From the NCBI RefSeq assembly GCF_056746865.1, contig NZ_CM163382.1: 64,000 nt of DNA. One strand, given 5' to 3'. The number at the start of each line of letters is the position of its first letter. Positions within the stretch are counted from its first letter, which is position 1. The position numbers and the translations under genes are program-made. Of this stretch, positions 16,134 to 64,000 are shown piece by piece. The notes below the pieces were generated by a model. It was not told where the DNA came from. It saw only the letters and a list, made by a program, of their open reading frames with translations, and did not search any database.

Positions 16134-16806
16134 GGTTCCTCCTTGCTGAGCCACGGCCCCTGATTGACGGTGCGTTCCCCAAACAACCATTGCTGACGAT
16201 TTAAAGGAACATCCCGGCGGCGCAATATTTTGCTCGCGACCAGGCCGTCGTGCTCCCCTTCCCACCAGCATTCATCCTGAAGTTTCGGGAGTGCGATTTT
16301 CAGGTCGTGGAAATGCTCCTGATACTGGTGATATGCGTTACGTAAAACATCAGACGCGTTGCCTTCAAGCAGTAACGGCGCAAGTGGTAATGCCAGCGGA
16401 TGACTTTTTCGCCCCAGATAAAGCGGAAAAACTGGATGGCGTAAACCGCCCTGCAACTGTTCGAGGCTGTAAGGCGCATCGGCTGTTGTTGCCACCGCCA
16501 CCATCCACCAGGCGTCGGTGTAGTAGTCGCGCCGGGAGATAATCGCGCTCAGAAGATCAGGGTCGCTCAACTCTTCGCGACGGCTGAAATAACGCGCTTT
16601 ACGCACCTCTTTTGGCATCTGGATTGTGTGATAATCCCGTGCCCAGCGCGGGTTACGGCTGGCGCAAACCACCAGTGAATAGTGGCGGTTAAACACGTTT
16701 AATCGTTCGGTATCATCACGCCGAATCCCTACCCCGGCAGCCAGCAGCCCCAGCAATGCTGAGCGCGAAGGCAGTTCATGGGTATGACGCACTTCGCCCG
16801 CTCCAA
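16115..16806 (-). pseudogene. cas5e: cas5e (casD) lacking its 5' end; homology stops at the island junction
   Basis: The frame reads ...GAGEVRHTHELPSRSALLGLLAAGVGIRRDD...PLYLGRKSHPLALPL (Cas5e hallmarks). The roughly 15-20 N-terminal codons, including the conserved WG segment, are missing. The TTG start at 16810 in the track is created by the junction. Confidence 0.8.
16792..16806 (+). repeat. Left island junction core (attL-like): CTTCGCCCGCTCCAA
   Basis: Identical 15-mer at 36704-36718. It lies inside the cas5e reading frame, where the reverse complement encodes GAGE. Confidence 0.75.
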
Positions 16807-16969
16807 ACAAACATTTCTCAACGTCTACTGAAGTCCATCAAATCCACGAATATCAAGCCTTTCAGCCATTTTCATAGCTTATTAACGTCTACTCACAACT
16901 ACCAGAATCTACACACAGAAGTGTATAGTAATGCGTATAGGACAAAATTTATTTTTTGGAGCTATACAC

Positions 16970-18184
16970 ATGCTGCTTTCAGACCTTGCTATCAGGCGCG
17001 CGAAGCCGAAAGAAAAGGCTTATACACTCAATGACGGTAACGGGCTTTCGTTACTCATTGAGCCGAACGGCTCGAAAGGGTGGCGACTACGTTACAGATT
17101 TGCAGGAAAGCCCAAAATGTTGTCGTTGGGCGTGTACCCTGATGTGTCTCTGTCTGATGCCAGAGCGGCAAGGGATGAGGCTAAAAGGCTTCTTGCTGGT
17201 GGTATAAATCCAAGTGAGGCCAGAAAAGCTCAAAAGCGAGAACAGGCGAGCAAATTTGGCAATACTTTTGAGGGTATCGCTCGCGAATGGTATGAAAAGC
17301 GGATCGACAGGTGGTCATCGTCATACGCCGAGGAAATGATCGAGACGTTTGAAAAAGACGTTTTTCCGTACATTGGCGGCAGGCCGATCGCAGAAATTAA
17401 GCCAATGGAGTTGCTTGCGGTTCTCTCCCGTCTTAATGACCGTGGGGCGACCGAAAAATTGCGTAAGGTTCGCCAGCGATGCGGCGAGGTGTTCCGGTAC
17501 GCAATCATCACCGGACGCGCTGAATATAACCCCGCACCAGATCTGGCAAGCGCATTTGCTCCACACAAAAAAGAGCATTATGCCTATTTGAAGGCCGACG
17601 AACTGCCGGAATTTTTCCGCGTTCTTAATACGTACACCGGAAGCCAGATCGTCAAGCTGGGTATGCGATTATTGATTCTGACAGGGCTCCGGCCAGGGGA
17701 ATTACGACAGGCAGAATGGCAGGAGATCGATTTTGATAATCGTTTGTGGGAAGTGCCTAAAGAACGAATGAAGATGCGCCGTCCTCATTGTGTGCCGCTT
17801 TCAGAACAGGCGATCGCTATTCTGGAACAGTTAAAACACATGACGGGGCAGTATCAGTTTATTTTCCCTGGTCGAATCCAGCACAGTAAGCCGATGAGTG
17901 AAATGGCGATGAACGTGCTTATTCGTCGTATTGGCTATTCTGGGCGCGTTACTGGTCATGGGTTCCGGCACACGATGAGCACGATTTTACATGAGCAGGG
18001 CTATAACACCGCGTGGATAGAAACGCAGCTTGCACACGTTGATAAGAACTCAATTCGTGGCACGTACAATCATGCGCAATATCTGGACGGGCGGCGCGAG
18101 ATGCTCCAGTGGTACGCCGACTATATGGACTCACTGGAACAGGGCGGCAACGTGGTGCATGGCAAGTTCGGAAAATGTGGATGA
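16970..18184 (+). CDS. int: P4-type tyrosine recombinase / integrase
   Basis: 404 aa from MLLSDLAIRRAKPKEKAYTLNDGNGLSLLIEPNGSKGWRLRYRF (typical P4-integrase N-terminus). Catalytic region HGFRHT...RGTYNH. GGAG RBS upstream. Confidence 0.92.
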   Translation: MLLSDLAIRRAKPKEKAYTLNDGNGLSLLIEPNGSKGWRLRYRFAGKPKMLSLGVYPDVSLSDARAARDEAKRLLAGGINPSEARKAQKREQASKFGNTFEGIAREWYEKRIDRWSSSYAEEMIETFEKDVFPYIGGRPIAEIKPMELLAVLSRLNDRGATEKLRKVRQRCGEVFRYAIITGRAEYNPAPDLASAFAPHKKEHYAYLKADELPEFFRVLNTYTGSQIVKLGMRLLILTGLRPGELRQAEWQEIDFDNRLWEVPKERMKMRRPHCVPLSEQAIAILEQLKHMTGQYQFIFPGRIQHSKPMSEMAMNVLIRRIGYSGRVTGHGFRHTMSTILHEQGYNTAWIETQLAHVDKNSIRGTYNHAQYLDGRREMLQWYADYMDSLEQGGNVVHGKFGKCG

Positions 18185-18312
18185 CTGGTTGAGTATACAG
18201 TAGTAGACTTTGAGCGACGAAAGAAAAAGCTGTGTCTAGGGTCGCTCCCGAAAAACCGTATACCTCGACGGGCTGGCACAGCCACTACAGTAGAGGACGC
18301 TGAGGTGTGCGT

Positions 18313-61847: not shown

Positions 61848-62342
61848 TTACCTTGCACAATGCATTATTGCTCTGTTACCAATACTCAAAATAAAAGCAT
61901 GCTTACCTTGCTTTAGTATATTATAGCTTACACTTTTTTCTGGAAAGACATAAAAATCAGGAATAAGTTCTGCAAGTCTATCATCATCGACTTGATCCAT
62001 GATCTCAAATTTATTAACTTTCTTTGATGTTAAATGGGCTGTGTCATAGTTTTCAATCCATGTGTATTCAATATTTCGCCGTATTGACTTACTTTCTCTG
62101 TTACCCTGTTGCCAGGTTCCGCTCAACGCAACAGTTCCTGTTTTATTTTTTTTGTTATACATAAAGTCGATGGTAAGATTTGCTCGCCCCTTGTCATTAA
62201 AAATTACCCAATTTGCAGTGCATGTTTCATTATATATCATTTTTTCTGCAGTATAAGAGTAAACAATGAAGAGAATAAACCCACTGATAAAAACTAAAAT
62301 AAATAATAAGTTTTTTTTATAATCAATCACGATTAACCTCAC
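61848..62342 (-). CDS. yqeJ: Membrane-anchored protein YqeJ (164 aa)
   Basis: N-terminal TM LLFILVFISGFILFIVYSY. Overlaps the yqeI 3' end by 20 nt. Confidence 0.6.
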   Translation of the reverse strand: MRLIVIDYKKNLLFILVFISGFILFIVYSYTAEKMIYNETCTANWVIFNDKGRANLTIDFMYNKKNKTGTVALSGTWQQGNRESKSIRRNIEYTWIENYDTAHLTSKKVNKFEIMDQVDDDRLAELIPDFYVFPEKSVSYNILKQGKHAFILSIGNRAIMHCAR

Positions 62343-63132
62343 GGTAAGACAGGGTTAAACAGCCTGCCACTTCATGTTGGTTATAGTTTTTATTGCATGC
62401 CATAACAATCATCCCTGGTGAGGATTTTGCAAGAGGGAAGTATAACCACGGATATTTTTTACAGTTAATCCCCGAATCCAGTATCCGTGTCTTATATTTA
62501 TCGAACTCTTTCAACCCATCAATTGTATCTTCTGTCACATTAAAATGGCAGCCATTAATTTCCGCAACAGTCTTGTAATCCTTGAAGAATGGCTTCGGTT
62601 GATTATTATTCCATAGCCAATGTGCAGAATATACGCCTATAGCAAATATGCTCAACATAATTAGATAACTTTTTATATGTTTGAGGATTTTGTTATTGAA
62701 ATTGTTTGCGCCACTAATGCTCTCTTTGTACCCCGCATTACCTTTTACGGCAGGTGGGGCATTGTGTGTATGTGCGTCTGTTGAAGAGTTTATTGCATGA
62801 TTTTGTATGTTAATGTCATTATGAATCTTGAATCCTCTTCTCGGCACGGTTGCAATAAGCGAGTGGGTGGTATCACCAACAGCGCGAAATCCGCGTCTGA
62901 TAATGGATATGTTCTGATATAACGTGTTAGTTGGCACACGCATACCTTCTTCTTCCCAGACTCTGGTGAAAAAATCTTGTTGTGCAACCACATCAGGAAA
63001 AGCTTCAAGTAGAAGTGATAAACAACGACTGGCTGGCGTTGTCAGAACGACGTTAAGATCGGCGTTATGTACCGATATTAATTTTCGGTGCTCAGGCCAG
63101 AACTCGATATTATCGTTAATAATCCAGTACAT
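62323..63132 (-). CDS. yqeI: ToxR-like transmembrane transcriptional regulator
   Basis: 269 aa. N-terminal winged-helix (LYQNISIIRRGFRAVGDTTHSLIATVPRRGFKI), a central TM and a periplasmic C-domain. Confidence 0.8.
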   Translation of the reverse strand: MYWIINDNIEFWPEHRKLISVHNADLNVVLTTPASRCLSLLLEAFPDVVAQQDFFTRVWEEEGMRVPTNTLYQNISIIRRGFRAVGDTTHSLIATVPRRGFKIHNDINIQNHAINSSTDAHTHNAPPAVKGNAGYKESISGANNFNNKILKHIKSYLIMLSIFAIGVYSAHWLWNNNQPKPFFKDYKTVAEINGCHFNVTEDTIDGLKEFDKYKTRILDSGINCKKYPWLYFPLAKSSPGMIVMACNKNYNQHEVAGCLTLSYREVNRD

Positions 63133-63465
63133 ACGTCAATAGACACTAAATCAATCGAAATGGAAATCACATAGTTTGCTAAGTATATTGGTATTTACGG
63201 CATAAATATATATTAATTTTATATTTATCATAATGATTGAAATGAGGCTTTAATGTCGCAACCTAAAACTTTACGTAAATTAACATGATTAACATTTATG
63301 CCACTATTGTTTGTAAATTCATATTTCGTAATGCTTCTGAATTTTTCGTGTGATGGTTTTAAATACCATGTTGTTTACTCTTGGGGTTACTGCTTATTTG
63401 TAAAATACGGGCATTTCAATAGATGCCCGTATAAGCAGAGTATGATTCTGGCAGATTATTGAGTA

Positions 63466-64000
63466 TCAATGTTGGACCGAATGTGAACGAATAAATAACT
63501 CGTTTATTTTACCACCCATTCTCTTTTCGATTCGTTGCTTGTACGCGTAGATGCTACGGATATCCATATCCAGAACTTCAGCAATCTGATATGGATTATA
63601 ACCAGAAACCATATACCCCATTATGGTGAATTCCATCTGAGTTAATGTGTTCCCTCTGGTAAATGATAAATAACGACCAATAAATAGTTGTCTGATCTTT
63701 TCGTTGGCAACATCAAGACCATCATCATTATATATGACAGCAGATATTGCAGAGTTGTGTTTTCGCCAGTAGTTAGCTAACGATTGCATATTTCGGTCGC
63801 TGACTAAAACAATCCCCATGTCAGTACTTGCAAGATAGTCAATCCAGTCTTTTTCAAGGAATAGACGTAAAAAACTTACTGAAAAATCGACAAAAATATA
63901 TCCGCTTAATCTCGCATTGTGGTTTTTTGTTAAAATACCTTCCACCACACCACGATTAAAATATGAACTTTCTTCGGGCCACATACAAAAACACGAGTTT
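63466..64000 (-). CDS. yqeH: LuxR-type regulator YqeH; the 5' end lies beyond the right edge of the window
   Basis: C-terminal HTH (LTQMEFTIMGYMVSGYNPYQIAEVLDMDIRSIYAYKQRIEKRMG). The frame stays open upstream of the listed Met to position 64000. Confidence 0.7.
   Translation of the reverse strand, partial: NSCFCMWPEESSYFNRGVVEGILTKNHNARLSGYIFVDFSVSFLRLFLEKDWIDYLASTDMGIVLVSDRNMQSLANYWRKHNSAISAVIYNDDGLDVANEKIRQLFIGRYLSFTRGNTLTQMEFTIMGYMVSGYNPYQIAEVLDMDIRSIYAYKQRIEKRMGGKINELFIRSHSVQH

Follow-up and report, generated by a model that had tools for sequence, protein, structure and literature searches.

Evidence for a 136-kb inversion between glyU and cas5e, the primary and a secondary attachment site of a phage-satellite-like island in Escherichia coli

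Phage lambda is known to resort to secondary attachment sites if it has no access to its primary one (Shimada, Weisberg and Gottesman 1975, as cited in PMC8637289). Inversions brought about by mobile elements are known from E. coli O157:H7, where prophage copies drive large inversions by homologous recombination (PMC8743559; preprint 10.1101/2020.12.02.407981), and from the Thermococcales, where the pTN3 integrase causes chromosomal inversions between inverted att-type sites (PMC5495485). Here we describe a 64,000-nt stretch of DNA (contig NZ_CM163382.1 of RefSeq assembly GCF_056746865.1; hereafter, the window), in which a phage-satellite-like integrative island of 19.9 kb lies between a truncated cas5e gene of the type I-E CRISPR-Cas system and the DNA downstream of the tRNA-Gly(CCC) gene glyU. 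Comparisons with related genomes indicate that the arrangement very probably reflects a real inversion, whichever mechanism produced it, and show that the inversion breakpoints are the island's primary attB site, i.e., the 3' end of glyU, and a secondary attB site in cas5e. The event adds a well-resolved case to a known kind, i.e., secondary attachment combined with inversion between inverted copies of a mobile element.

As with the lambda sites, an integrase has used a site that shares little beyond the overlap with attP, and the insertion has disrupted the target gene. Unlike the lambda sites, however, this one is located within a CRISPR-Cas gene, its user is a satellite-like island of the kind found at tRNA 3' ends, and natural isolates show repeated use of it; occupation of the primary site in glyU may be what drives the use of cas5e. 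The resemblance to O157:H7 would lie in inverted copies of a mobile element that act as long repeats and flip the DNA between them; both orientations can coexist. In O157:H7, the inversions have distinct lambdoid prophages at their ends and mostly lie symmetrically around the terminus, while the present one would involve two copies of one 20-kb island and a 136-kb interval within a single replichore, with an operon split in the process. The pTN3 integrase is, like the enzyme encoded here, a tyrosine integrase of a tRNA-targeting element, but it is archaeal and of the suicidal type and shows a relaxed, homologous-recombination-like activity in vitro, which is not known for the E. coli integrase considered here.

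To place the two flanks, we used E. coli strain 118UI (NZ_CP032515), in which glyU is empty and cas5e is intact. The left flank (window positions 1-16798) was identical to 118UI at 16,798 of 16,798 bases on the plus strand (118UI locus positions 2002-18799), whereas the right flank (36700-64000) matched 118UI on the minus strand, with only two differences, i.e., a T4/T5 homopolymer at 38165 and a single-nucleotide polymorphism at 61306. These are the only differences in 44 kb of flanking DNA, and the homopolymer length is the sole indel. The part of the right flank that holds the ETT2 type III secretion locus corresponds to 118UI positions 3315045-3339045 on the minus strand; in 118UI, ETT2 runs towards glyU in the same strand sense as the cas flank, while in the window it is reversed. 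An earlier interpretation of this DNA, made from its letters without database searches (hereafter, the sequence-only reading), had held that the flanks are inverted relative to each other and that ETT2 lies in the opposite relative orientation to the reference, and both statements hold against 118UI. Its distance of roughly 100 kb between the two loci needs correction, as the cas5e site (3,206,332) and the 3' end of glyU (3,342,329) are 136 kb apart in 118UI. GC skew, proposed by the same reading as a check, was -0.049 in the left flank, +0.083 in the island and +0.089 in the right flank, while both flanks are negative in 118UI; the switch of sign at the junction thus also counts in favor of an inversion. 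A simple deletion between cas5e and glyU, which had been judged unlikely, is ruled out by the opposite strands of the flanks, and a plain insertion at the secondary site without inversion is ruled out by the right flank, which is glyU downstream DNA and not the 5' part of cas5e followed by cas7e. In the near-identical genome of 118UI, glyU is unoccupied and cas5e uninterrupted, so the rearrangement is recent within the clone.

At the left junction, the alignment to the chromosome and the alignment to the island overlap by exactly CTTCGCC, a heptamer that reads ...gacgcaCTTCGCCgggggcatcg... in its cas5e context and ...gattccCTTCGCCcgctcca in the 3' end of glyU. The claim that the remaining part of cas5e is fused to the integrase end of the island at a pseudo-core was thereby confirmed to the base, and position 16792, given as the start of the rearranged interval, is the first base of the core. 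The window contains no complete tRNA gene at the integrase end, where the 3' part of cas5e abuts the core, and ARAGORN detected no tRNA genes anywhere in the 64 kb. In the 27 complete E. coli genomes that carry a related island at glyU, as well as in every context read for the exact integrase, tRNA-Gly sits at this end. The other island end had been described as a native-looking partial-tRNA junction, and it does represent a native glyU-type attR (at 36704-36717), in which the core joins the island P arm to the glyU downstream flank; the sequence past the core is the 118UI sequence immediately 3' of tRNA-Gly. Direct repeats of the tRNA end (CTTCGCCCGCTCCA) are present at both ends, as in an island at a tRNA site, and the flanks derive from two different insertion sites, i.e., cas5e (secondary) on the left and the DNA downstream of glyU (primary) on the right. 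Besides the 7-bp core, the flanks of the pseudo-attB in cas5e agree with those of attB1 at 12 of 30 positions only, which rules out the cas5e site as a strong sequence mimic of attB. The heptamer itself occurs hundreds of times per genome.

Among the 5,426 complete E. coli genomes in RefSeq, ETEC1747 (NZ_CP122722) was the only one with a match across the left junction of the window. Its cas5e gene carries a related island of 10 kb whose attL (gacgcaCTTCGCCcgctcca) is base-for-base identical to the window junction and whose attR is gttcCCTTCGCCgggggcatcg. The latter reads ...gttcCCTTCGCC followed directly by gggggcatcg (in the longer context, ...attgttcCCTTCGCC followed by gggggcatcg) and continues with the 63 nt of cas5e that are missing from the window and with cas7e-casB-casA-cas3; in 118UI, the two halves of cas5e are contiguous. 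Because this insertion is complete, with both attL and attR, the cas5e heptamer is a genuine secondary attB with the crossover within CTTCGCC. Sequence identity between the sites is confined to the overlap in ETEC1747, where both hybrid sites were recovered; the window itself has an attL-type junction only. At glyU, ETEC1747 has a second island copy that points the other way, encodes a full-length integrase and matches the cas5e copy at 99.9% identity over about 9 kb, which shows that double inverted lysogens exist. The gene order flanking both copies is that of 118UI, i.e., the interval is not flipped, as judged from both of its ends. The islands of ETEC1747, which lie inverted at glyU and cas5e, share with the window the integrase family and the cas5e attL junction; they differ in that the flanks of the interval are uninverted and in that they belong to a variant of 10-12 kb that carries a RepA helicase and other cargo, the cas5e copy having lost most of int. 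Such an arrangement is a ready substrate, in that one homologous exchange would yield the layout of the window. At glyU, ETEC1747 has an attR core that lacks one C (CTTCGCCGCTCCA; positions 37560-37575 of the extracted locus), and an 88-aa open reading frame (ORF) cluster with 17 members in the database reads across the same shortened core, which indicates that it is not a one-off error.

Further samples carry the cas5e junction. The 42-kb Logan contig SRR23378764_16, from an independent read set, carries the inverted junction seen in the window, but the island is cleanly missing from it, which leaves a hybrid attB. Here, kduI-yqeF-yqeG is followed by 156 bp of the glyU downstream flank, by TGGAGCGGGCGAA joined directly to GTGCGT, and by the truncated cas5e with cas6e-cas1-cas2; read from the cas side, the join is truncated cas5e, CTTCGCCCGCTCCA, glyU downstream flank and yqeG. 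Around this join (contig positions 8186-10001), the cas side is 100% identical to the window and the yqeG side is 97.8% identical to 118UI (2.2% differing), and ETT2 is absent. In this sample, either the inversion arose independently or the background is recombinant. The sample shows that the inversion is found in nature, however assemblers deal with a 20-kb repeat, and that precise attL × attR excision can remove the hybrid island. In addition, contigs in GCA_031020925.1 (JAMRXL010000010.1) and in SRR17709973 carry the junction between truncated cas5e and the island; they stop 77 nt (the usual SPAdes k) and 30 nt (Logan k-1), respectively, past the first base of CTTCGCC. As these distances equal assembler k lengths, the strain appears to have a second context that shares its sequence from the core on, i.e., a glyU attL or a circular attP. 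The cas5e heptamer has been hit in the clone of the window, in ETEC1747, where both the cas5e allele and the island variant are different, and probably in two more lineages. The copy of the tRNA end next to truncated cas5e in GCA_031020925.1 and SRR17709973 is ...CGCTCAAAAC, with CCA changed to CAA; if the second context in this strain is glyU, the tRNA gene would no longer encode its CCA end.

The reading that we favor, although we see it as evenly balanced between right and wrong, is that a genuine inversion of about 136 kb, to which the island adds its length, has one of its ends in the window and arose by recombination between two island copies. The island would have integrated at glyU, as shown for its relatives, and a second copy would then have entered the cas5e site in the opposite orientation, as seen in ETEC1747. 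This second copy could have come from replication after excision or from re-infection of a cell with an occupied glyU; since the island encodes a primase and a single-stranded DNA-binding protein (SSB), it probably replicates after excision, which would provide the former route. Recombination between the inverted copies would have flipped the interval, either by RecA-dependent exchange anywhere in the approximately 20 kb of identity or by Int/AlpA-catalysed attL × attR recombination between the copies. The island in the window would then be a hybrid that took its attL from the copy in cas5e and its attR from the copy at glyU; the exchange point at cas5e is within the 7-bp overlap. The other end of the inversion would read actS-glyU-int-island-cas5e5'-cas7e-casB-casA-cas3, unless that copy has since been excised; had the exchange been direct, or the reciprocal copy been excised afterwards, this end would be ...GGTTCGATTCCCTTCGCC joined to GGGGGCATCGACGCC without an island.

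Several points weigh against recombination between two copies. None of the 5,426 complete genomes showed the inverted configuration, and a protein search for a fusion ORF between the cas5e N-terminus and the island end found no such protein, returning only antisense island ORFs across other junctions and ordinary Cas5e proteins. For the genome of the window, a second island copy and a reciprocal junction are predictions, and its configuration is that of the assembled sequence. The window alone also cannot tell homologous from site-specific exchange, and as excision of the reciprocal copy would leave a direct fusion of the 5' parts of glyU and cas5e, the reciprocal junction is an imperfect discriminator. 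The island-less form of the inverted junction was likewise absent from the 5,426 genomes.

The mechanism put forward by the sequence-only reading was a single, non-canonical Int exchange between the attL of one glyU copy and the inverted pseudo-attB in cas5e, inverting the interval in one step; an equivalent form would join the attR of a cas5e insertion to an empty glyU attB. While the inversion between att sites and the fusion at the pseudo-core stand, direct catalysis by Int is not established given the two-copy state of ETEC1747, and we consider it a plausible mechanism that is not favored and that, both forms taken together, is rather unlikely to be the correct one. The breakpoint falls exactly at the 7-bp overlap, as expected for strand exchange by a tyrosine recombinase, the integrase gene is intact, fewer events are needed than with two copies, and the pTN3 integrase is a documented case of an enzyme that inverts DNA between att sites in inverted orientation. 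Lambda Int can recombine attL with attB-type partners in vitro, inefficiently, through the "straight-L" pathway. On the other hand, attL × attB is not a normal reaction of arm-binding integrases, and the same precise junctions arise if the island integrates in the ordinary way at each site and the two copies then recombine by homology, for which the two-copy intermediate has been observed. Direct exchange would also leave the 5' part of glyU fused to the 5' part of cas5e, which would destroy the acceptor stem of tRNA-Gly(CCC) and inactivate glyU, a loss that is probably tolerated but likely costly. We did not find this fusion, neither as a spanning match to a synthetic query (actS-glyU5' joined to cas5e5'-cas7e) in the complete E. 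coli genomes nor by exact-pattern scans of GTDB species representatives and JGI metagenomes. This is weak evidence, as the junction of the window is itself missing from those collections: searching the GTDB representatives for the attL junction returned two 20-mer matches, both in unrelated metagenome-assembled genomes and roughly as many as chance would give, and a longer attL-junction pattern gave none in the JGI metagenomes. Since ETEC1747 shows that a whole second copy integrates in cas5e in inverted orientation, recombination between two copies is at least as likely as direct exchange by Int.

Alternatively, the source could be an uninverted, ETEC1747-like double lysogen whose 20-kb inverted repeat was resolved wrongly during assembly, or a culture mixed for orientation, of which one form was reported. 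Two identical inverted copies of 20 kb allow exactly two resolutions of the assembly graph, one of which is the configuration of the window, the double-lysogen state is proven by ETEC1747, and the only indel relative to 118UI is a homopolymer length, a typical feature of assemblies from long reads, and such reads may fall short of 20 kb. We nevertheless find an artefact improbable, as SRR23378764 has the inverted junction without the island, which is impossible from mis-resolution of a repeat; the window is otherwise of very high quality relative to 118UI, and two copies in the source would have to be assumed. Least probable by far is that integrase played no part, i.e., that illegitimate recombination occurred at a chance microhomology or that the junction was imported from another strain. 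Identity over 7 bp is within the range of microhomology-mediated joins, but the same base-exact junction recurs in unrelated backgrounds with different island variants and forms one end of a full insertion in ETEC1747, and heterogeneity of junctions among independent events was not seen. As for import, both flanks are those of 118UI right up to the core, leaving nothing that would have been imported.

With such an inversion, the type I-E system of this genome would be dead, as cas5e is truncated, the remaining Cascade genes and cas3 would lie more than 136 kb from cas6e-cas1-cas2 and the CRISPR array, and cas1 was already a pseudogene. An inversion of 136 kb within one replichore reverses about 100 genes relative to replication, among which, going by the K-12 map, are presumably eno and pyrG. 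With ETT2 now beside the CRISPR array and the cas operon split, typing schemes that rely on synteny would go wrong in the CRISPR-cas and ETT2 regions; in addition, short-read assemblies break at such junctions, and genomes with two islands can be assembled in the wrong orientation.

It is tempting to speculate that cas5e is a favored or selected secondary target, i.e., that insertion into it is an anti-CRISPR strategy that recurs in independent E. coli lineages. We doubt that this is the case, and retain the idea because one site has been used repeatedly despite a flank match to glyU of only 12 of 30 positions. If it were true, the island would land in cas5e when glyU is occupied and knock out Cascade, and inversion could then permanently part cas3 and Cascade from cas6e-cas1-cas2 and the CRISPR array. 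Repeated use of cas5e may reflect either integrase preferences beyond simple identity or selection for the loss of Cascade, and it raises the question whether satellites gain by disabling CRISPR-Cas systems through insertion. We found no paper describing repeated use of cas5e as a secondary attachment site.

In the truncated cas5e, the remaining frame may start at GTG (16792), giving 225 aa, or at TTG (16810, inside island DNA), giving 231 aa. A 225-aa product is on record as Cas5/CasD, while the exact 231-aa protein has no database record; the 225-aa and 163-aa start variants of Cas5e on record belong to other genomes. A Cas5e of equal truncated length (225 aa) is recorded in Shigella flexneri K-315 (EIQ18849.1), and this may represent another insertion at CTTCGCC or merely a start-codon or frameshift variant. 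The features of the window are listed in Table 1.

Table 1. Features of the 64,000-nt window, with positions, strand and the basis of each assignment
Feature	Position	Strand	Basis or remark
Chromosomal flank in reference orientation	1-13029		100% identity and 118UI annotation
rpoS	1970-2962	-	
cysD	10832-11740	-	
iap	11992-13029	+	
Type I-E CRISPR array	13111-14176		direct_repeat annotation in 118UI and BLAST repeat self-hits
cas2e	14273-14566	-	Coordinates carried over from 118UI annotation, sequence identical
cas1e (pseudogene)	14563-15486	-	Coordinates carried over from 118UI annotation, sequence identical
cas6e	15483-16133	-	Coordinates carried over from 118UI annotation, sequence identical
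cas5e without its first 63 nt (21 codons)	16115-16798	-	Translations and ORF starts
Crossover core CTTCGCC, left inversion breakpoint	16792-16798	+	Only sequence common to cas5e (secondary attB) and glyU/attP
Left copy of the 14-bp glyU 3' end, CTTCGCCCGCTCCA, adjoining int	16792-16805	+	Hybrid attL, i.e., cas5e arm and island P' arm
Phage-satellite-like integrative island, 19.9 kb	16792-36717	+	Comparison with related islands
Tyrosine integrase, 404 aa	16970-18184	+	Arm-DNA-bind_3 (PF13356), Phage_int_M (PF22022), Phage_integrase (PF00589); PHROG_1 integrase
AlpA-family small DNA-binding protein, candidate excisionase/activator	19338-19535	+	Pfam Phage_AlpA on orthologue in related loci; GF43 annotation
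DUF927 primase/helicase-like replication protein	22566-24692	+	Pfam DUF927; PHROG 1139 DNA primase
IS200/IS605-family insertion	25412-27059		tnpA-like ORF 25412-25948 (-); tnpB 25851-27059 (+), 402 aa
Island cargo, four ORFs of 843, 686, 918 and 104 aa	27693-35354	+	Full-length PHROG matches
Right copy of the 14-bp glyU 3' end, CTTCGCCCGCTCCA, adjoining the GH15 gene	36704-36717	+	Sequence match
GH15 (ygeQ-like) gene, first chromosomal gene past the island	36950-38559	+	Frameshifted at 38165
ETT2 type III secretion locus, then yqeK, yqeJ, yqeI and partial yqeH	39150-64000		118UI annotation; inverted relative to the left flank

From position 16792 on, the window is 99.4-99.7% identical to the glyU-end and integrase DNA of GF43 and other complete genomes. 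The integrase ORF is intact and encodes a heterobivalent tyrosine integrase adjoining one end of the island; the exact 404-aa protein is widespread and adjoins actS-glyU in all contexts read. The gene set is of the satellite type, with int, AlpA, AntA/BRO, an Icd-like gene, DUF4222, a DUF927 primase and SSB, and a full virion set is lacking. No annotation as sid, psu or delta (genes of P4) was found in GF43 or among the ORFs of the window, and on its gene content we describe the island as having a satellite-like int-alpA-primase layout without filing it as P4 or PICI. The cargo ORFs have very strong matches to phrog_992 ("head protein"), phrog_1145 and phrog_684 (both "virion structural protein"), and the cargo ORFs look like internal-virion or ejection proteins within a satellite-like island; PADLOC gave no defence-system match and Pfam no domain match for the cargo. 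The N-terminal part of the 843-aa cargo protein also matches endolysin/transglycosylase PHROGs, and the exact protein is rare, being found only in metagenome contigs with other backbones.

The IS200/IS605 insertion is missing from all 27 related islands in complete genomes, and the element replaces a ProQ/FinO-PerC segment that all 27 have. Among the contexts shown for the exact TnpB, 9 of 10 look plasmid-borne (mostly IncFII RepA contigs and one conjugative-pilus contig) and one lies in a lambdoid prophage. None of the contexts shown for SSB and TnpB adjoins cas5e. The module of primase, SSB, ProQ and cargo is found behind three integrases at three sites, i.e., the 404-aa Int at glyU, a 422-aa Int by yicC/rph and a 473-aa Int by an SIP/FAD-binding gene, which indicates that integration modules have been swapped on a constant body. 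One ORF cluster in the nr database (8 members) reads from the right end of the island through the core into the integrase-side arm, an attP-like junction, and in two complete genomes (EC17CM6 and YZLc1-3) the right end of the island is not continued by the GH15 flank; together, these observations suggest tandem or circular forms of the island at glyU.

In the right flank, the T4 run at 38165 (T5 in 118UI) splits the GH15 gene into ORFs of 423/437 aa and 113 aa, and no database record matches the frameshifted ORFs; the T4 run may be a long-read homopolymer error or mark a true pseudogene. The left flank contains hydroxyarylic-acid decarboxylase genes, a marR-type regulator, rpoS, nlpD, pcm, surE, truD, ispF, ispD, ftsB, ygbE, cysC, cysN, cysD and iap. 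In the identical sequence of 118UI, cas1e has an internal stop and is annotated as a pseudogene, which indicates that this clone already had a defective CRISPR adaptation module when cas5e was hit.

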